Source of the DNA: Candidatus Iainarchaeum sp.
GTDB lineage: Archaea; Iainarchaeota; Iainarchaeia; Iainarchaeales; CSSED10-239
Length of the DNA stretch: 31,946 bases
Assembly: GCA_937968065.1 (NCBI GenBank)
Contig: CALBUD010000049.1
Location: 1-31,946 of the forward strand
Reading direction: 5' to 3'
Made by a program: the position numbers and the translations under genes. Positions 6,108-31,770 of the stretch are shown here, piece after piece. Within the stretch, counting starts at the first letter, position 1, and each line of letters opens with the position of its first letter. The notes beneath the pieces are model-generated. The model had not been told where the DNA came from and ran no database searches. It saw only the letters and a program-made list of their open reading frames with translations.

Positions 6108-6189
6108 TGCAGGGGACAGGATTCGAACCTGCGAAGCACTAAGCACAGGATCTTAAGTCCTGCCCCTTTGACCACTCGGGAACCCCTGC
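6108..6189 (-). tRNA. tRNA-Leu, anticodon UAA (class II, long variable arm)
   Basis: The reverse complement GCAGGGGTTCCCGAGTGGTCAAAGGGGCAGGACTTAAGATCCTGTGCTTAGTGCTTCGCAGGTTCGAATCCTGTCCCCTGCA folds as a cloverleaf. It has a 7-bp acceptor stem, anticodon stem CAGGA/TCCTG with loop CTTAAGA, and a T-loop GGTTCGAATCC. No CCA is encoded, and a T6 run follows the discriminator. It is a GC-rich island in AT-rich DNA. Confidence 0.9.
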
Positions 6190-23085: not shown

Positions 23086-26000
23086 TTAATTTTTAATATC
23101 TAGTGTTTCAAGTTCTTTTAAAGTTACTTGTTTTGTATTTATATCTTCTTCTTCAACTATAGATGTTTTTAGATCCAAATTTTCTTTTTTAACTACATTT
23201 TCTTCTACATTATCTGTAACTTTATCTTTCTTCTTTGAATAACGTCTTGAGATAAAATATATTAATAAAGCTATTAATAATATTAAGATGACAAATAAAA
23301 TAATATCTGAAGCTGTTTTAAAAGAAAAGAATCCTGTTAAAATACCAGGTTTATCAACTTCTTTTAAATTATATTCACCTTCTTTAATTATTTGATATGT
23401 ATCTAAATCATATATTTTATATTTTAGATTTGATAAATCATCATATTTTATTTTATAATTTTTAGAAACTTCAGTAAAAGCATCTACCCCAAATTCTAAA
23501 TCTCCTTGAATTTCAAAACTATTTACATCTTCAAAAGAAATTAAAAGATTTTTTTGTAAACTAGAAGAATTGTTTATAGTTAAAGTTAATAAAACTGTTT
23601 TATCTTCATCTAAAACATTTTCAATAACTGATGAGATTAAAAGTTCTTTTTCAACAATTCCTCTATCTATTAAAAAAGGTTCTTTTAAGATTAATCTTCC
23701 AAGGTTATATATCTCTATATATCCATTATATTCATTTAAATAACTATTGTCTGGTATAATTATTCCAAAATAAATGTTTTTAGTCATAGAGGGAGATAAT
23801 AAAAATTCATTTTTGTTTTCTGCTTCTGTAAATATATTTTTATTTAACATATTTTCAGATTTAACAAAAACAAAATCTTCTGGAAATCCAGAAAATTTAA
23901 CTTCAATTGTTTTGTTTTCAAAAGAAGTATTTTTTAAACTAAAATTACTTGTTATTCTTTTGTCATTTGAAGATATTTTTGAAACATATGTTGTAAAATA
24001 AATCTCTTGGTCTGAAGATGTCACTGGATAAAGATTTGTAAAATAAGAGATTGGCTCACAACCATTAAAAGTAACTGTATAAATTACATTTTTTGGATTT
24101 TTAATATTTAATAAATCTATTTGTTTTGAAAAATTATCATAACCAGATAAAGGTATTATTGGTTCTTGAATAACAGCACCAGTTGAAGTTACTTTTATAG
24201 AACCTGTTTTATTAGTTAGATTTTTAAAAGATATTTGTACAAAATCATTATCTAAAGAAATATATTTTGAATTTGGATAATTTAAAGTAAAATCACAAGA
24301 GTTTTCAAAAGAATATTGTTCAAAAGTAAAAAAACCTGATTTTGTATCTTTATAATCACAAGAAACTCCATTTGAAAATAAACCTTTTGCTAAAAGTTCA
24401 AAAGAACCAGGATTAGATGTTCCAACTCTAATTGTTCTTTGTGAATTTTTAGGTAAAAATAAAGATTTATCAATAATATTTATATTTGTGTTTCTTCTAT
24501 TTTCAAAAATAACATCATTTAATGAAAAATCTACAGAAGAATTATTATAAATGGTTATAAAATTTTCTCCATCTTTAAAATAAGAATCATTAAAACCTAT
24601 ATTTGAACAAATTGAATCTTTGTTTATTAAGATATTATAGTTAGTGTTAATTGCTGAATAAGAACAAAAATCACCATTTTCAAAATTACCTTGAATAGAT
24701 ATATTTCCAACAGAAGTTATATTTGATGGAATATTTGTTGTTCTTATATCAAAATTTAAAGAAGTATCTGATTTAGGGTAGATTGTATAATTTATAGGTT
24801 TTGGAAAAATATCTGTATAAAGAGTGTTATCTGTGTGATTTATTCCTGTTATTGTAAATTTTTTATTAGAATTATTAAAAATATAAAAACCATTTTCTTT
24901 TGAAAAATTAGTTTGTGTTTTTTCTTGTAAATTTAAATTTCTTGTAAAAATAGTTATATCTTTACATTCATTTGAAACAAAATTTTGAGAAGTTGGAGAT
25001 ACTCTTACAGTTATTGTTTCATTTATTCTACATCTTTTATCTTCTCTATTTTCTCTTTTTAAAAAACCTTCAACTCTTAAAGTTAAATTTTCTGTTTTTA
25101 AAAAATCAGTTTTTCCTGATCTTACATTAAAAGTTAATGATTTTTTAGAATCTTCATATATTCTAAAAATACTATTTCTTAAAGAAACATCTAAAATAGA
25201 ATTGCTTGGTTTATCTATTCTTATATTTTCAACTTCAAAATAATAATCTAAAGATTTGTTTAAAACATCTATTTCAAAAGATTTATTATCATTTGAAGAA
25301 ATATTAAAATAATTATTTGAAATTCTTAAATCACTACACTCTGCTGTATTTGGAAGATAACTATCATTTATTCTATATCTTACGTTATATACCTTTTCAC
25401 AAGTTAAATTTTCATATTTTCCAATAACTCTTATATCAAAAAAGTTAGTGTATGTTGAAGAAACAGTATCTGCAAATAAATCTATTTGTGCACTTCTTGT
25501 TTGATAAGGAGATATTGTAAAAGGATAAGAAATGTTTTCAATTTTAAGGTTTGTTGGGTTTATAGGGTTTGTTGTAACTGAAGTTATGTTTAGTGGTTTG
25601 TCTATAGTATTTATTATATACAAATTATAAAAATCTCTTTTATCTTCTGTTAAATAAATATCAGAAAATCCAGAAACATAAAAATCATCACAAGTCGGAA
25701 TATTTTGTGGAGGAGTTGGAGGAATCAGAGGAGTTGTTGAACCACCTGTTGTTCCTTGTGAATAAATATATGAACTTGTTGTTGTTTGATAAGTTCCATC
25801 TGATGATTGAAGATCTAAAACAACTTCATAAGATTGATAAGAAGGATCAAAATAAAACATAGGGTTATATGAATAAACATAGTTTGAATAAGGAGATAAA
25901 ATGAAAGAATGTGTTTGTATGTTATGAACAAAAATTCTTTGACCAAAAGGATTTATTCCATAAACTTTAGGTGACACAATTACATTTACAGGAGATGCAA

Positions 26001-26184
26001 AATTAGTTCCATATATTGAATATCTTAAATCTATTGTATCATATACATCTGCATATTGATATGGCATGTAGATTGGATGTGAAGATGTTCTTACATGTGC
26101 ATAATCAAAACCAATTGTGTATGCTGTAATTGCATTTGATAAAATTATTATTGAAAAAAACAATAACAAATATTTAAATTTCAT
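23086..26184 (-). CDS. large secreted, C-terminally membrane-anchored surface protein (S-layer/adhesin-like, repetitive beta-sandwich-type modules)
   Basis: It has an N-terminal signal peptide MKFKYLLLFFSIIILSNAITA. The roughly 950-aa body is Asn/Ser/Thr/Tyr-rich with many N-x-S/T sequons and recurring strand patterns such as F-x-I-x-N-x-S (YIFNNSNKKFTI, ITIYNNSSVDFSL, LTLTINNSSSL). A single C-terminal TM segment DIILFVILILLIALLIYFI is followed by RRYSKKK and a 54-aa charged tail. GGGGT lies before the ATG. Confidence 0.75.
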   Translation of the reverse strand: MKFKYLLLFFSIIILSNAITAYTIGFDYAHVRTSSHPIYMPYQYADVYDTIDLRYSIYGTNFASPVNVIVSPKVYGINPFGQRIFVHNIQTHSFILSPYSNYVYSYNPMFYFDPSYQSYEVVLDLQSSDGTYQTTTSSYIYSQGTTGGSTTPLIPPTPPQNIPTCDDFYVSGFSDIYLTEDKRDFYNLYIINTIDKPLNITSVTTNPINPTNLKIENISYPFTISPYQTRSAQIDLFADTVSSTYTNFFDIRVIGKYENLTCEKVYNVRYRINDSYLPNTAECSDLRISNNYFNISSNDNKSFEIDVLNKSLDYYFEVENIRIDKPSNSILDVSLRNSIFRIYEDSKKSLTFNVRSGKTDFLKTENLTLRVEGFLKRENREDKRCRINETITVRVSPTSQNFVSNECKDITIFTRNLNLQEKTQTNFSKENGFYIFNNSNKKFTITGINHTDNTLYTDIFPKPINYTIYPKSDTSLNFDIRTTNIPSNITSVGNISIQGNFENGDFCSYSAINTNYNILINKDSICSNIGFNDSYFKDGENFITIYNNSSVDFSLNDVIFENRRNTNINIIDKSLFLPKNSQRTIRVGTSNPGSFELLAKGLFSNGVSCDYKDTKSGFFTFEQYSFENSCDFTLNYPNSKYISLDNDFVQISFKNLTNKTGSIKVTSTGAVIQEPIIPLSGYDNFSKQIDLLNIKNPKNVIYTVTFNGCEPISYFTNLYPVTSSDQEIYFTTYVSKISSNDKRITSNFSLKNTSFENKTIEVKFSGFPEDFVFVKSENMLNKNIFTEAENKNEFLLSPSMTKNIYFGIIIPDNSYLNEYNGYIEIYNLGRLILKEPFLIDRGIVEKELLISSVIENVLDEDKTVLLTLTINNSSSLQKNLLISFEDVNSFEIQGDLEFGVDAFTEVSKNYKIKYDDLSNLKYKIYDLDTYQIIKEGEYNLKEVDKPGILTGFFSFKTASDIILFVILILLIALLIYFISRRYSKKKDKVTDNVEENVVKKENLDLKTSIVEEEDINTKQVTLKELETLDIKN

Positions 26185-26224
26185 AAAATAACCCCTTTTT
26201 TTTTCTTAAATCTTATATAAAAAA

Positions 26225-26605
26225 TTATTGCCAACTAAATGAAACTCTAGTGTTTGGATTTACATAACTTATAGTGTTATAATTATAGTAAGTTGGATAA
26301 GTATATGTTGAATAACTATAACTTGGATAAGTATATGTTGAATAATATGAATTAACATAACTTGTGTATGTTGGAGTAATATACCCTGTATAAGGACTTA
26401 CATATCCTGAAGGATAATAGTATCCATAATCATAGTAACTGTTATAATAAGGTACATTTGGATAATATGGATAATTATAACTTACATTTGAATAAGATAT
26501 GTCAGTAACATCAAATCTTTTTGCAGCATCTACAGATATAGATACAAAAACAAGTGCAATTAAAATCATTAAAACACCTAGAATATTAATATATATTTTT
26601 TTCAT
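26225..26605 (-). CDS. small secreted or membrane-tethered tyrosine-rich low-complexity protein
   Basis: I moved the start to ATG 26605, which is preceded by GAGGTGA. The signal/anchor is MKKIYINILGVLMILIALVFVSISVDA. In the mature part I counted about 30 Tyr in about 99 residues (YNYPYYPNVPYYNSYYDYGYYYPSGY...). A 30-bp tandem duplication at 26291-26350 encodes Y-S-T-Y-T-Y-P units. Confidence 0.7.
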   Translation of the reverse strand: MKKIYINILGVLMILIALVFVSISVDAAKRFDVTDISYSNVSYNYPYYPNVPYYNSYYDYGYYYPSGYVSPYTGYITPTYTSYVNSYYSTYTYPSYSYSTYTYPTYYNYNTISYVNPNTRVSFSWQ

Positions 26606-26800
26606 ATACCCTTTCACCTCATATATTTTGTATATATATTTAGAGACAAATAGTTTATAAATGTTTTTAATTTAATAACTGAACGTAATTATCTACAAAA
26701 GGTATTAAAAAACAAATATTTTTTTAATAAAAAAAAAACAAACATCTTTAAATATATAATCATATATAGTAATATATAGAAAAATAAAAAAAGAATATCT

Positions 26801-27190
26801 ATGGTTGATCAATCTCAAAATATTTATCAAGATATTAAAGCATTACAGTCAAGCATTTTAGTTTTAAGACAAAAAATAAAATATCTTGTGCATAATGAAA
26901 AAATATTAGGTAGAAATATACTGGTTTTAAACAAAAAGATAGCTTCTGCTAATTTTTCTGGAAATGGAGATTCTGAAATTTCTAATGAAAAAATAGAAAA
27001 AATATTAAATACTTTAGAAAATCTAGATTCAAGAATAAAAGGAATTGAATCAACACTTGAAATGTTTTCAAAAAGATATGCAAGAGCAGAAGATTTAAAA
27101 GAAATGAAATATGTTATTGATAACATAAATCCTTTAGAGTATACAACTATTGAACAAGTTAAAAAAATCATTAAAGAAGAAAGTAAATGA
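26801..27190 (+). CDS. hypothetical coiled-coil protein (129 aa)
   Basis: The plus strand is A-rich here, as coding strands are in the rest of the window, and shows heptad-like Leu/Ile spacing. The competing minus-strand ORF is Phe/Ser-rich antisense shadow. A TATA-like CTTTAAATATATA lies about 40 nt upstream. Confidence 0.6.
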   Translation: MVDQSQNIYQDIKALQSSILVLRQKIKYLVHNEKILGRNILVLNKKIASANFSGNGDSEISNEKIEKILNTLENLDSRIKGIESTLEMFSKRYARAEDLKEMKYVIDNINPLEYTTIEQVKKIIKEESK

Positions 27191-27483
27191 ACTTATTCGA
27201 TTTTAGACAAAAATGGAATGAAGATAGTGTTTTAGCAAAAAAAAGAAAAGAACTTTTATGTGCGTCTAAAATTACTAATTCTCAAAAAATAAAATTAAAC
27301 TTATTAAATATTGAATTTTTAAAAGATGTTATAGCTGTTTCTAATGATCAAAGAAAAATTAATCAAAGTTTTAGAGAGATTTTAAGACTTAAGAGAAGTA
27401 ATACAGAAATTAAAAAAAAAATTGCTTTTAATAAAAAAATAAAATCTGCTTCTAAAAAACCAAAGATAAAAAGAAAAAGATAA
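27187..27483 (+). CDS. hypothetical basic protein (98 aa) with a poly-Lys/Arg C-terminus
   Basis: It has an ATGA start/stop overlap with the upstream ORF. The C-terminus is KKIKSASKKPKIKRKR. I recognised no family. Confidence 0.5.
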   Translation: MNLFDFRQKWNEDSVLAKKRKELLCASKITNSQKIKLNLLNIEFLKDVIAVSNDQRKINQSFREILRLKRSNTEIKKKIAFNKKIKSASKKPKIKRKR

Positions 27484-28026
27484 TTATTTAAAACTAGTTT
27501 TTAAAAATAAATAATAGGTTCCAATAACTATTATTATTAAGAATAATCTAAATAAAAAACCATGGAAAAAATCTGCAACAGATAGATCTAAAGAAACTAT
27601 TAAAAAGATTGTAAAAGTTATTCTTAAAAAATTAAAAAAGATTACTACTAAAAAAGATAAAAAGATCCATTTTATCTTTTGTTTAAAAGAAATGCCTAGG
27701 GTTGAAATGATAGCACTAAAAATCAAAGAAAATTCTAAAATACCTGTGCATAAAAAAACAATAGCTACAGGAAACTCTAAAGAAGGAATTATTAAGAAAG
27801 TTGTTTTTTCTATAAAATCATAATAAAAAGTAGAAGGTATATTATAAAAAATATTTAATAATTTACTTGACATTGATCCAAAGAAATAGTTTATGCCGTA
27901 ATAAATAATTGTCTTTGAAAGAACTAAATAAATAGAAATAAAAGAAATTAAAAAATAAATTAAAAAAAGAAAAGATTCTTTTAATTTCTTTTTATTTTTT
28001 AAATCTTTTTTTATTTTTTTAAACAT
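27484..28026 (-). CDS. minimal exosortase/archaeosortase-family membrane protein (putative sorting transpeptidase)
   Basis: 180 aa, about 5 TM segments. The ordered motifs are AIVFLCTGILEFS (family signature x-x-C-S/T-G), then about 40 residues later FFNFLRITF (N-x-x-R-I), then DFFHGFLFR (His/Arg). This is the Cys/Arg/His arrangement of EpsH/ArtA-type enzymes. It starts 9 nt after the eS8 stop. Confidence 0.55.
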   Translation of the reverse strand: MFKKIKKDLKNKKKLKESFLFLIYFLISFISIYLVLSKTIIYYGINYFFGSMSSKLLNIFYNIPSTFYYDFIEKTTFLIIPSLEFPVAIVFLCTGILEFSLIFSAIISTLGISFKQKIKWIFLSFLVVIFFNFLRITFTIFLIVSLDLSVADFFHGFLFRLFLIIIVIGTYYLFLKTSFK

Positions 28027-29708: not shown

Positions 29709-30167
29709 TTATACTAATTTAGGCCTTATTATTCCACCATGAAAAAAACCAGAATAAATTGTTTCGCCCTTATAATCAATTCTTTCTTTTCCAATAAATT
29801 TTTCAATATTTCCATTAACATCTGAAAAATATTCAAAATCATTTTCTTTATAGATGTTTGGGCCTCTAAAAGGAAATCTTTCTTCAACATTTAATAAAGC
29901 TTTTTTTAAAAAATCATAAATTTCTTTTTCTAAAATTAAATGAGTTTCTATAAAACCATAATAGTTTAAAGACCAAATAAAATTATCTTTTTCAAAAATA
30001 ATCTCTTGTCCTGAAAAAGGGTTATATCCATAATATTTATCAACATACTTATAATTTTCTTTTTCATAAATTAACTCTTTTGAACCATCTTTATTTAATT
30101 TATCTGTTATACGAGAAGATGCATAAGTGTTTTTTTTAGCTTCTATTAAAAAATCAATAAATTCCAT
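29709..30167 (-). CDS. DUF5680-like conserved protein of unknown function
   Basis: I moved the start to ATG 30167 (MEFIDFL), which is preceded by AAGGAGGA; the track start is TTG. The pattern FL-x-x-AK-x-x-TYA ... Y-x-D-x-Y-x-G-x-x-x-F-x-G-x-E ... W-x-x-N-Y-Y-G ... FLK-x-AL ... PFRGP ... F-x-G-x-E-x-I ... FHGG matches my recollection of that family. Confidence 0.5.
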   Translation of the reverse strand: MEFIDFLIEAKKNTYASSRITDKLNKDGSKELIYEKENYKYVDKYYGYNPFSGQEIIFEKDNFIWSLNYYGFIETHLILEKEIYDFLKKALLNVEERFPFRGPNIYKENDFEYFSDVNGNIEKFIGKERIDYKGETIYSGFFHGGIIRPKLV

Positions 30168-30183
30168 GTTTTTTCCTCCTTTT

Positions 30184-31770
30184 TTAAAAATCAACTATTG
30201 TTTTTTGAACTTTTTTCTTTTTAGAATCTTTTAAAAAATCTTTTTTTGACATATTAATTAAATTTTTATTCATAGTTTTTTCTTTTTTTAAAGATACAAA
30301 ATAATAATGTTCATCAATAGTATCTTTGTTTAAAAGAATAACAACTTTTCCTGCATTAAATCTTCCTGTTCTTCCTCTTCTTTGTATGGATCTTATCTCA
30401 GAAGGAACAGCATCATAAAAAATAACTAAATCAACAGAAGGTATGTCAAGACCTTCTTCACCTACAGAAGTGCATACTAAAACATTGAAGACACCCTCTT
30501 TAAAATCAGAAATTATTTTAGATTGTTCTTTTTGAGATAATCCTTTATCTTTTTCTTTACTTGCTTGTCCTACAAATCTTGCAGCAGAAACCCCTTCTTG
30601 ATTATTTAAAATAAAAGTTAAATGTTGAGCACAATCTCTAAAATTATTAAATATTAAAATTTTTGAATTTTTATTGTTTTTTAAAAAAGTGGTTGTAAGA
30701 GAAAGAATTTCTTTTTCTTTAGAATATAAGTCTTTTTTTAAATCTAAATTAACAAGTAAAGAATAAACCTCTAATATTTCTTTAGAATTTACAAACTGAT
30801 GAATAGTTTTTGTTGTTTTAGAAGATTTAGACTCTACAAATATTTTTTCTAAATAATTTTTTAAAGGTAAAAAACCTTGAGTTTCAATTAATTCTTTTGC
30901 ATGATATGCTTTTAAAGCAAGAGAAGTGTTTATTAAAGCTACAAAATTTAAAGAATTTTTAGATTTTTCAAGTCTTTTGAATAATAAGTGTTGAATCATA
31001 AGAATTTGTTTTTTTGTAAAATTATTTGAGATAGATATATTTAATTTTCTTAAAATATTTATTTTTTTAAAAATAAAAAAATCTAAGATTTTAGATATTT
31101 TTTTTGAAATTAAATCAAGCTCTACAAAAATAGTTTCTATTTCTATTTCTTTAATATAATCTATAACATCAATATCTTTATCTGTTCTTATCTCTATATG
31201 ATTTATTTTTAAATTATCTGCAACCTCTTTAATTTTTGTTTTATTATGTCCTGGAGATGCTGTTAAAGCTAATCTTTTTGTTTTTTCTGAAAAAAAAGAA
31301 GAGATTGAAACATAAGCATAATCACCTATCGCTCTATGAGCTTCATCAAAAATAATTAAATTAAAATTTTCTTTTTTTAAAAGATTATTTTTAATATCAT
31401 TATTTATTGTTTGAGGAGTTGCACAGATTATTTGTCCTTTTTTTGAATAAATTTCTTTTCTTTTTTCTGGAAGAATTTGTCCAGTTAATAATATTATCTT
31501 TTCTAAAGAAATATCTAAAACTTTTTCTAAAGATTTTTTATGTTGAGAAACTAAAGGTTTTGTTGGAGCTAATAAAATTATTGATTTTGAAGCATCATAA
31601 ACAGAACCTATAAGTAAAGCCGCAATAATTGTTTTTCCAAGACCAGTTGGAGCTACAACTAAAGTATTTGCATCAATTGCTTTTGCAGTTAAAAGCTCTT
31701 GATATAATCTTTTTTCTACAATATTTTTTTTAATATTTGGAAAAGAGATAAATTTATCTTCAATTGACAT
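30184..31770 (-). CDS. hef: Hef/FANCM/Mph1-type superfamily-2 DNA helicase (helicase half of Hef)
   Basis: Motif I APTGLGKT, Ia LAPTKPLV, II DEAH, III TASPG, an inserted helical domain, V TSVGEEGLDIP and VI QRRGRTGR. It stands in the same operon as an ERCC4 nuclease. Confidence 0.85.
   Translation of the reverse strand: MSIEDKFISFPNIKKNIVEKRLYQELLTAKAIDANTLVVAPTGLGKTIIAALLIGSVYDASKSIILLAPTKPLVSQHKKSLEKVLDISLEKIILLTGQILPEKRKEIYSKKGQIICATPQTINNDIKNNLLKKENFNLIIFDEAHRAIGDYAYVSISSFFSEKTKRLALTASPGHNKTKIKEVADNLKINHIEIRTDKDIDVIDYIKEIEIETIFVELDLISKKISKILDFFIFKKINILRKLNISISNNFTKKQILMIQHLLFKRLEKSKNSLNFVALINTSLALKAYHAKELIETQGFLPLKNYLEKIFVESKSSKTTKTIHQFVNSKEILEVYSLLVNLDLKKDLYSKEKEILSLTTTFLKNNKNSKILIFNNFRDCAQHLTFILNNQEGVSAARFVGQASKEKDKGLSQKEQSKIISDFKEGVFNVLVCTSVGEEGLDIPSVDLVIFYDAVPSEIRSIQRRGRTGRFNAGKVVILLNKDTIDEHYYFVSLKKEKTMNKNLINMSKKDFLKDSKKKKVQKTIVDF

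Follow-up and report, generated by a model that had tools for sequence, protein, structure and literature searches.

A tyrosine-rich, predicted secreted mini-protein encoded next to the gene of a large, probable envelope protein in Forterrea-like Iainarchaeota

Contig CALBUD010000049.1 of Candidatus Iainarchaeum sp. (assembly GCA_937968065.1; positions 1 to 31,946, the whole stretch analysed, hereafter the window) carries on its minus strand a short open reading frame (ORF) whose predicted mature product is about 30% tyrosine. This ORF is a genuine coding gene under purifying selection, confined to a narrow clade of Forterrea-like Iainarchaeota. It would be the first gene of a two-gene envelope operon of this clade (Diapherotrites, DPANN; the Candidatus Forterrea group), the second gene encoding a large protein that is very probably the main anchored protein of the envelope. 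We tentatively favour the explanation that the small product is a non-covalent, multivalent cohesive or adhesive 'sticker' accessory that may dock on this large glycoprotein. The two genes and the spacer between them are as follows.

26225 to 26605, minus strand: coding sequence of the tyrosine-rich mini-protein (126 amino acids plus stop codon), recognized by its orthologues and by purifying selection
26185 to 26224, minus strand: intergenic spacer of 40 nucleotides (nt), with a run of six T after the stop codon, a GGGG ribosome-binding-like site at 26192–26195 and no conserved promoter block
23086 to 26184, minus strand: gene of the partner envelope protein (1032 amino acids), assigned from its sequence and a structural model

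The mini-protein frame runs from an ATG at 26605 to a stop codon at 26227–26225 and is the only one of the six frames that is open at the locus. The GTG at 26617 proposed by the ORF finder falls within the Shine–Dalgarno sequence GAGGTGA (26614–26620), and ATG 26605 is the start common to the orthologues. The precursor has a mass of 15.0 kDa and contains 31 tyrosines, 30 of which lie in the 99 residues past the predicted cleavage site VDA/AK (slash, cleavage), making up 30.3% of a mature part of 12.0 kDa (pI 6.1, grand average of hydropathy –0.85). Tyrosine averages 3.6% in the other 44 ORFs of the window, and the binomial probability of finding 30 or more tyrosines in 99 residues is ~7e-20. 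The runner-up stretch of 99 residues in the window, with 16 tyrosines, lies in the N-terminal domain of the neighbouring large protein. The mature window copy contains no cysteine and one lysine, and since its charged residues are limited to K29, R30, D32, D35, D59 and R120, residues 36–119 hold a single charge (D59). Thus the position, the tyrosine count, the composition and the lack of charge over most of the length, all reported by a first-pass annotation of the window, hold up. The same annotation described a 30-bp tandem duplication at 26291–26350; Tandem Repeats Finder confirms it at 26289–26345 (period 30, 1.9 copies, 96% matches), in frame and encoding the units STYTYPSYSY and STYTYPTYYN. 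Codon bias, used as a proxy for expression, gave no signal for the gene, the TAC share of tyrosine codons being 0.13 compared to 0.11 in the ribosomal operon.

Relatives of the mini-protein are few. A search of 5.8 billion protein clusters returned five, an exhaustive profile search of 1.84 billion representatives yielded six representative clusters and a second profile search found two further family members, while scans gave 4 loci in GTDB genomes and 16 in JGI metagenomes; viral contigs (IMG/VR) held no relatives. The family set comprises 29 sequences, 24 of them with distinct mature parts. Named carriers are Candidatus Forterrea multitransposorum (complete genome CP045477) and metagenome-assembled genomes assigned to Iainarchaeum or 'ainarchaeum', that is, the DPANN phylum Iainarchaeota (Diapherotrites). 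In all 24 distinct orthologues the frame is intact, differences in length are multiples of three and tyrosine makes up 26–33% of the mature part. Conserved tyrosine columns show synonymous variation, with both TAT and TAC in use. Close pairs have Nei–Gojobori (NG86) ratios of nonsynonymous to synonymous substitution rates (dN/dS) of 0.06–0.21; across 86 pairs the median is 0.20 and the highest value 0.42. Retention of the frame by 24 distinct relatives, together with such low dN/dS in close pairs, shows that the gene is genuine.

These data also settle whether the ORF is spurious, having arisen by chance in low-complexity DNA rich in AT and in TAT. The base composition (20–31% GC in the window, ~22% around the gene) does favour TAT, and the protein sets of four reference genomes contain no called protein for the gene. 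Nevertheless, the intact frame in 24 distinct relatives, the insertions and deletions in multiples of three and dN/dS values of ~0.1–0.2 have already refuted this reading, and the signal peptide, the sequence motifs, the Shine–Dalgarno sequence and the promoter-like block described below are all conserved. Loss of the frame in relatives, which the first-pass annotation had named as the sign of non-coding DNA, was seen in none of them. The orthologues of four GTDB genomes (L007, L008, L009 and L010, CP045477 included) are missing from a collection of 15 billion proteins in which the adjacent large proteins are present, so that gene callers have apparently skipped this short low-complexity gene.

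The mini-protein had no match in Pfam, NCBIfam (E ≤ 1), PADLOC or PDB sequences (E ≤ 10), and its database relatives are all unnamed or listed as 'hypothetical protein'. The literature on tyrosine-rich secreted or surface-layer (S-layer) proteins of archaea, together with the Forterrea genome paper, makes no mention of such a protein. The earlier remark that no archaeal family of this kind has been described is borne out by these searches, and we regard the family as an undescribed, clade-restricted one of tyrosine-rich, secreted and presumably structural proteins in an unusual setting.

The gene is tightly linked to that of the large protein. A homologue of the large protein lies 24–70 nt 3' of the small gene in every locus with downstream DNA, a sample that includes the window, Forterrea and three other GTDB genomes, further contigs and 15 of 15 metagenome loci. 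In the reciprocal test, the small gene was found 24–45 nt upstream in nine of 10 large-protein clusters. The large protein is equally narrow in distribution (10 clusters among 5.8 billion), and its gene is followed by the rpl3 ribosomal operon both in the window and in related loci. The adjacency proposed for the window is therefore kept in every locus where it could be checked. Its spacing (40 nt, same strand) was reported correctly, whereas its direction was not: because both genes are on the minus strand, the tyrosine-rich gene lies upstream (5') of the large gene rather than downstream. Two conserved elements precede the small gene.

26614 to 26620, minus strand: Shine–Dalgarno sequence GAGGTGA, its 3' end 8 nt before the ATG, the strongest among those inspected in the window
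26647 to 26690, minus strand: near-invariant non-coding block AATTnnGTTCAGTTATTAAATTAAAAACATTTATAAACTATTTG of 44 nt, seen in an alignment of 11 loci, the putative promoter of the gene pair

The 44-nt block occurs once in the window and hardly varies between loci whose proteins share only 35–60% identity. It contains an element resembling a B-recognition element and TATA box, TTTATAAA, at 26654–26661, 48 nt before the ATG. The intergenic spacer is short (24–70 nt in relatives) and, a Shine–Dalgarno-like run of G apart, unconserved. As a promoter-like block and a strong Shine–Dalgarno sequence precede the small gene, and a Shine–Dalgarno-like site alone precedes the large one, a single promoter appears to serve both, and the layout suggests that the two genes form an operon and are co-transcribed. 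A scan for bacterial-type promoters and terminators gave counts equal to those of shuffled sequences, which is uninformative in an archaeon, and Rfam detected no structured RNA in or near the locus, its one hit in the window being a tRNA-Leu elsewhere. The block (AATTnnGTTCAGTTATTAAATTAAAnACnTTTATAAACTATTTG) reaches well upstream of the TATA-like box and may in addition contain a site for a regulator or act on the divergent gene.

The features of the product itself are as follows.

26525 to 26605, minus strand: predicted signal peptide, residues 1–27, composed of MKK, a 22-residue hydrophobic core and VDA/A, from alignments
26441 to 26521, minus strand: N-terminal block of the mature part, KRFDVTDISYSNVSYNYPYYPNVPYYN, from alignments, with the signature [KE][RD]FD[VI]TDISYSYV.Y.YP.Y
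26381 to 26407, minus strand: central motif GY[VI]xPYTG[YM] (GYVSPYTGY, residues 67–75), from alignments, with Y72 and G74 invariant
26289 to 26345, minus strand: in-frame 30-bp tandem duplication within a length-variable Tyr/Ser/Thr/Pro repeat region
26228 to 26278, minus strand: C-terminal block NTISYVNPNTRVSFSWQ, from alignments, with the signature N.[IV]SY........[ST]FSW and W125 invariant

The product begins MKKIYINILGVLMILIALVFVSISVDA/AKRF. Inspection of the alignment showed that orthologue leaders consist of MKK or MNKK, a hydrophobic core of ~20 residues and then [VIL]-[SDF]-A, with alanine invariant at position –1. What had been annotated as a signal or anchor helix thus has the features of a Sec-type signal peptide that signal peptidase I would probably cleave, after A27 or A28. 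AlphaFold, run on an alignment of 10 sequences, modelled the signal segment alone with confidence, as a helix. If that helix were left uncleaved, the protein would be a membrane-tethered spacer whose tyrosine-rich chain fills the space between the membrane and a canopy of large protein. A 22-residue core can span a membrane and AlphaFold draws one helix over residues 2–34, but the [VIL]-x-A at –3 to –1, with its invariant alanine, is what signal peptidase I would be expected to recognize, and a conserved motif begins right after it; we regard tethering as unlikely. A type IV pilin- or archaellin-like class III signal peptide was rejected, as the hydrophobic stretch has no G/A cleavage motif ahead of it and is followed by the conserved A-x site.

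Across the 24 distinct sequences, Y38, S39, P46 and Y48 of the N-terminal block are invariant. A first variable, tyrosine-rich stretch separates this block from the central motif. The repeat unit varies by lineage, with two copies of STYTYPSYSY in the window and five of YYPxT, together with GYNY, in a second subfamily; in this middle part of the protein repeat units turn over and the composition stays. Motifs that are sharply conserved at both ends and in the centre suggest a specific binding partner.

The mature parts of the orthologues contain on average 29.6% Tyr, 12.2% Ser, 10.2% Asn, 8.9% Thr, 8.3% Pro, 5.2% Gly and 0.5% Lys, with no Cys. Tyrosines are not placed at random. Pairs of them one or two residues apart are depleted (z = –2.8 and –4.1), while distances of 3, 5 and 6 residues are over-represented (z = 6.4, 4.4 and 5.4), and in 24 of 24 sequences the aromatic residues are spread more evenly than in shuffled controls (window-based statistic; z from –1.0 to –2.3, mean –1.66). 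Self-associating low-complexity domains place evenly spaced aromatic stickers, among which tyrosine is a strong one, in polar spacers (PMC8638251; bioRxiv 10.1101/2021.01.01.425046). Two features of this prion-like, sticker-and-spacer class, a polar low-complexity aromatic composition and a more than randomly even spacing, are found in the mature parts. Since composition and even tyrosine spacing are kept across a middle whose repeats turn over, we read them as a sticker-and-spacer signature. The mature part is predicted to be disordered: the mean predicted local distance difference test (pLDDT) score of the AlphaFold model is 47.9, and residues 33–109 score below 50.

The same composition could belong to a functional amyloid or fibre subunit forming cross-beta surface fibrils, like curli or methanogen sheath proteins. 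The sequence is polar, prion-like and rich in Asn, Ser, Thr and Tyr, prion-like domains of archaea are capable of amyloid formation (bioRxiv 10.1101/2020.07.20.212902) and AlphaFold predicts the terminal motifs as short strands. However, proline averages 8% of the orthologue mature parts and is spread through the repeats, there is no curli-type repeat ladder, and even aromatic spacing is thought to counteract uncontrolled aggregation (PMC8638251). The alternating-strand pattern that the amyloid proposal of the first-pass annotation calls for was not seen, tyrosine spacings of 1 and of 2 (z = –4.1) being depleted and 3 enriched, and we consider an amyloid very unlikely. Its proposal of a glycosylated matrix protein likewise found no support with respect to N-glycosylation: N-X-S/T sequons number 0–3 per orthologue and are not conserved, and the one sequon of the window copy results from a private Y40N change.

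A third proposal, dityrosine cross-linking, belongs to a broader reading in which dityrosine, isodityrosine or 3,4-dihydroxyphenylalanine (DOPA)-based oxidative coupling would turn the protein into a covalent, insoluble wall layer. The tyrosine content of 26–33% is very high and conserved, and the signal peptide points to an extracellular location. CotC and CotU form high-mass assemblies in spore coats, where dityrosine links occur and their chemistry in Bacillus is attributed to a peroxidase and a source of H2O2 (PMC7944565). Such coupling needs a peroxidase, laccase or tyrosinase and an oxidant (PMC7944565), but neither the window nor the conserved neighbourhood of ~30 loci contains a gene for such an enzyme. 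Deep groundwater, a presumably anoxic habitat, is the source of the one relative described, whose metabolism is minimal (PMC5905446). A covalent matrix is, as far as these loci show, quite unlikely.

The large partner has a signal peptide (residues 1–21), a tyrosine-rich N-terminal domain (22–127), a Thr/Pro linker (128–161) and tandem beta-sandwich domains, the chain of which is well modelled from ~280 to 940 (pLDDT 70–90). Its C-terminus consists of an LTGFF motif, a transmembrane (TM) helix (958–984), a basic cluster (RRYSKKK) and a disordered tail of ~50 residues. Comparison with Pfam, NCBIfam and PDB sequences gave noise only and no family match, and Foldseek searches with the model returned generic tandem beta-sandwich matches (hydin-type proteins, alpha-2-macroglobulins) at TM-scores of 0.1–0.15. 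Generic criteria for archaeal S-layer proteins have been listed for a DPANN S-layer protein (bioRxiv 10.1101/2021.04.28.441871), and the size (118.6 kDa), the pI (5.0), the 26 N-X-S/T sequons and the 10 conserved cysteines, equal to five pairs, of the partner fit them (bioRxiv 10.1101/2021.04.28.441871). These properties make it probable that the partner is the S-layer or main envelope protein. Homology between the mini-protein and the tyrosine-rich N-terminal domain of the partner was rejected, as hhalign assigned it a probability of 14% and the signal peptides were responsible for the match.

Aromatic-rich, uncharged surfaces often bind sugars and other surfaces, which lends some support to the possibility that the chain acts as an outward adhesin, binding host-cell glycans, an S-layer, polysaccharide or mineral surfaces and so attaching a symbiotic DPANN cell. 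Since the membrane anchor of the partner is C-terminal, its own tyrosine-rich N-terminal domain would be distal, in keeping with this possibility, and a symbiotic lifestyle has been predicted for Forterrea (PMC5905446). Yet no lectin-like fold, no fold like that of a carbohydrate-binding module and no family match was found, and the strict operon linkage accords no less with a protein that works together with the large one. An adhesive role of this kind, which we consider unlikely, overlaps the sticker explanation rather than excluding it.

According to the sticker explanation, the Sec pathway would export the product, and removal of the signal peptide would free a nearly uncharged low-complexity chain of ~12 kDa with tyrosines (~30%) spaced evenly between Ser, Thr, Asn, Pro and Gly. 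The motifs FDVTDISYSYV..YP.Y, GY[VI]xPYTG and ISY...[ST]FSW would dock this chain onto the co-expressed, glycosylated, membrane- or lipid-anchored beta-sandwich protein. The variable tyrosine repeats would then act as multivalent non-covalent stickers through pi-stacking, hydrogen bonds and CH-pi contacts with glycans, and envelope subunits could be held together or coated as a cohesive, adhesive layer. The gene, its purifying selection, its signal peptide, its conserved, extreme and even tyrosine content and its strict linkage to the large gene have been shown above; what we infer from them is that the signal peptide is cleaved, that the two genes are co-transcribed, that the product docks and self-associates and that the partner is an S-layer protein. 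Of the first-pass proposal, an envelope or adhesive accessory is the best remaining reading and the linkage to a surface protein would favour it; its glycosylated, dityrosine and amyloid forms are unsupported.

Several observations weigh against this explanation. P0019 (locus L013), the most divergent homologue of the large protein (33% identity), is preceded by a gap of 388 nt (L013 5613–6000) with no tyrosine-rich ORF, and the large protein can therefore apparently do without the small one. The partner, presumed to be an S-layer protein, matches no S-layer family. The run of T right after the stop codon of the small gene, which several relatives share with the window, could cause part of the transcripts to end there and so attenuate read-through. 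The even spacing in 24 sequences does not amount to 24 independent tests, because the sequences are related, and the low pLDDT may reflect the shallow alignment of 10 sequences rather than true disorder. Finally, a hydrophobic core of 22 residues is long and could remain as a membrane anchor. A more far-reaching version of the sticker explanation is conceivable and, in our judgement, rather improbable. It pictures an extracellular, non-enzymatic 'tyrosine glue', a sticker-and-spacer chain that would condense into a gel-like cement and bind the envelope glycoprotein, host cells or both, having co-evolved with the archaeosortase-anchored surface protein and being stoichiometrically co-expressed from its operon.

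A gene relevant to the anchoring of the large protein lies close by.

27484 to 28026, minus strand: archaeosortase/exosortase-family membrane protein (180 amino acids), TIGR04178 at 41.6 bits against a cut-off of 23

In every related locus examined, this archaeosortase-family gene is conserved nearby and adjoins the S8e gene. Its product is a candidate processing enzyme for the large protein rather than for the tyrosine-rich one; the latter was rejected as an archaeosortase (PGF-CTERM-like) substrate, since it ends in ...VSFSWQ and has no C-terminal hydrophobic segment. P0019 ends directly at ITGF, a TM helix and RKK, the classic shape of an archaeosortase signal. Curated models of C-terminal sorting signals did not match the C-terminus of the partner, and the archaeosortase and the LTGFF signal may constitute an undescribed pair of archaeosortase and sorting signal. 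Most members of the large family carry the ~50-residue tail past the basic cluster, and its end, KQITLxELD, is conserved. P0019 has no such cytoplasmic tail, and the gap upstream of its gene (L013 5613–6000) also has no conserved promoter block; the small gene and the tail of the large protein may have been gained or lost together. At L036 1501–4539 the large gene is split by an in-frame stop codon into ORFs of 652 and 345 amino acids, which points to a pseudogene, to variation between strains or to an error of assembly.

Compared to known systems, the tyrosine-rich protein would work most like tyrosine-rich structural proteins and prion-like domains, and its operon logic resembles that of two-component S-layers. 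It belongs to none of these systems: it shows no homology to them, its composition differs from that of CotC and CotU and it has no stalk, sorting signal or amyloid repeats. In eukaryotes, extensins and the proteins of oocyst walls, eggshells and mussel feet are secreted, tyrosine-rich, repeat-evolving matrix or adhesive proteins that depend on peroxidase or tyrosinase chemistry, hydroxyproline glycosylation or DOPA. In contrast, the loci and orthologues analysed here show neither these enzymes nor the corresponding motifs (SPPPP, Lys-rich DOPA contexts). CotC and CotU of the Bacillus subtilis spore coat are also rich in Lys and Asp, are not known to have a signal peptide and assemble within the mother cell. 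The present family is archaeal and apparently Sec-exported, contains 0.5% Lys, is nearly uncharged in most members and shows no sequence relationship to them. What the two have in common is that they are small prokaryotic surface-layer proteins with a very high tyrosine content that would form a layer with larger partners (PMC7944565). As judged by sequence, the mini-protein differs from prion-like domains of the FUS/hnRNPA1 type in being a whole small protein, presumably extracellular, with three sharp motifs at its ends and centre. Its aromatic fraction of ~30% is roughly two to three times theirs. It is like them in its polar Ser, Thr, Asn and Gly spacers, its even aromatic stickers, its predicted disorder and the conservation of composition over sequence (PMC8638251; bioRxiv 10.1101/2021.01.01.425046). 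The SlaA/SlaB S-layers of Sulfolobales are similarly encoded by adjacent, presumably co-transcribed genes for a large glycosylated protein and a smaller partner (PMC10903991). In those S-layers SlaA is held by SlaB, a coiled-coil stalk anchored in the membrane, whereas here the large protein bears its own C-terminal anchor, and the tyrosine-rich protein (12 kDa, low-complexity) has no coiled coil and no C-terminal TM helix, shows no homology and would be anchorless after cleavage. The Haloferax S-layer glycoprotein, processed through PGF-CTERM and ArtA, resembles the large partner in its succession of motif, TM helix and basic cluster, and here, too, an archaeosortase-family gene is found, ~1.3 kb away (PMC7157517). 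It differs in that the motif of the partner is LTGFF rather than PGF, that most members carry a ~50-residue tail and that no curated model matches; the tyrosine-rich protein has no such signal.

The rest of the window is occupied by a minus-strand cluster of archaeal ribosomal-protein genes, within which a tRNA-Leu (anticodon TAA) is located at 6108–6189 (minus strand), together with genes for S8e, CGI-121, an XPF/ERCC4 nuclease and a Hef-like helicase. A divergent pair of plus-strand genes (26801–27190 and 27187–27483) is conserved in all related loci, with no family match for either product. The first encodes a 129-residue coiled-coil protein whose N-terminus (MVDQSQNxYQDIKALQSS...) is nearly identical everywhere; the second, whose start overlaps the stop codon of the first (ATGA), encodes a lysine-rich basic protein of ~100 residues. 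Between the XPF nuclease and Hef-like helicase genes, an ORF of 161 amino acids (29709–30194, minus strand) has counterparts in related loci that match DUF5680 and, at 8.7%, the highest tyrosine content among the other ORFs of the window. A diversity-generating retroelement cassette (a small target-like gene, bAvd and an RVT_1 reverse transcriptase) lies beside CGI-121 in some relatives, at L001 446–2600, L002 215–2369 and L016 321–2472, and is absent at the equivalent position of the window.

The envelopes of DPANN archaea are almost unknown in molecular terms, and they are the interface of a host-dependent lifestyle. Our results delineate, for a single clade of DPANN archaea, a conserved envelope module of two genes, in which a gene for a tyrosine-rich mini-protein is paired with one for a large beta-sandwich protein, predicted to be glycosylated, and an archaeosortase-family gene lies nearby. 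They also illustrate how short low-complexity genes escape annotation, even in the complete Forterrea genome. If the sticker explanation is true, the self-association grammar of the eukaryotic cytoplasm would extend to the archaeal cell surface, and the mini-protein would offer a very small, lysine-poor, tyrosine-dense natural peptide scaffold for biomaterials. A 'tyrosine glue', if it exists, would be the first archaeal envelope component built on low-complexity phase behaviour instead of a folded lattice subunit. Should the sticker explanation prove wrong, the operon would still provide a handle, as antigen, promoter and partner, on these uncultured cells.

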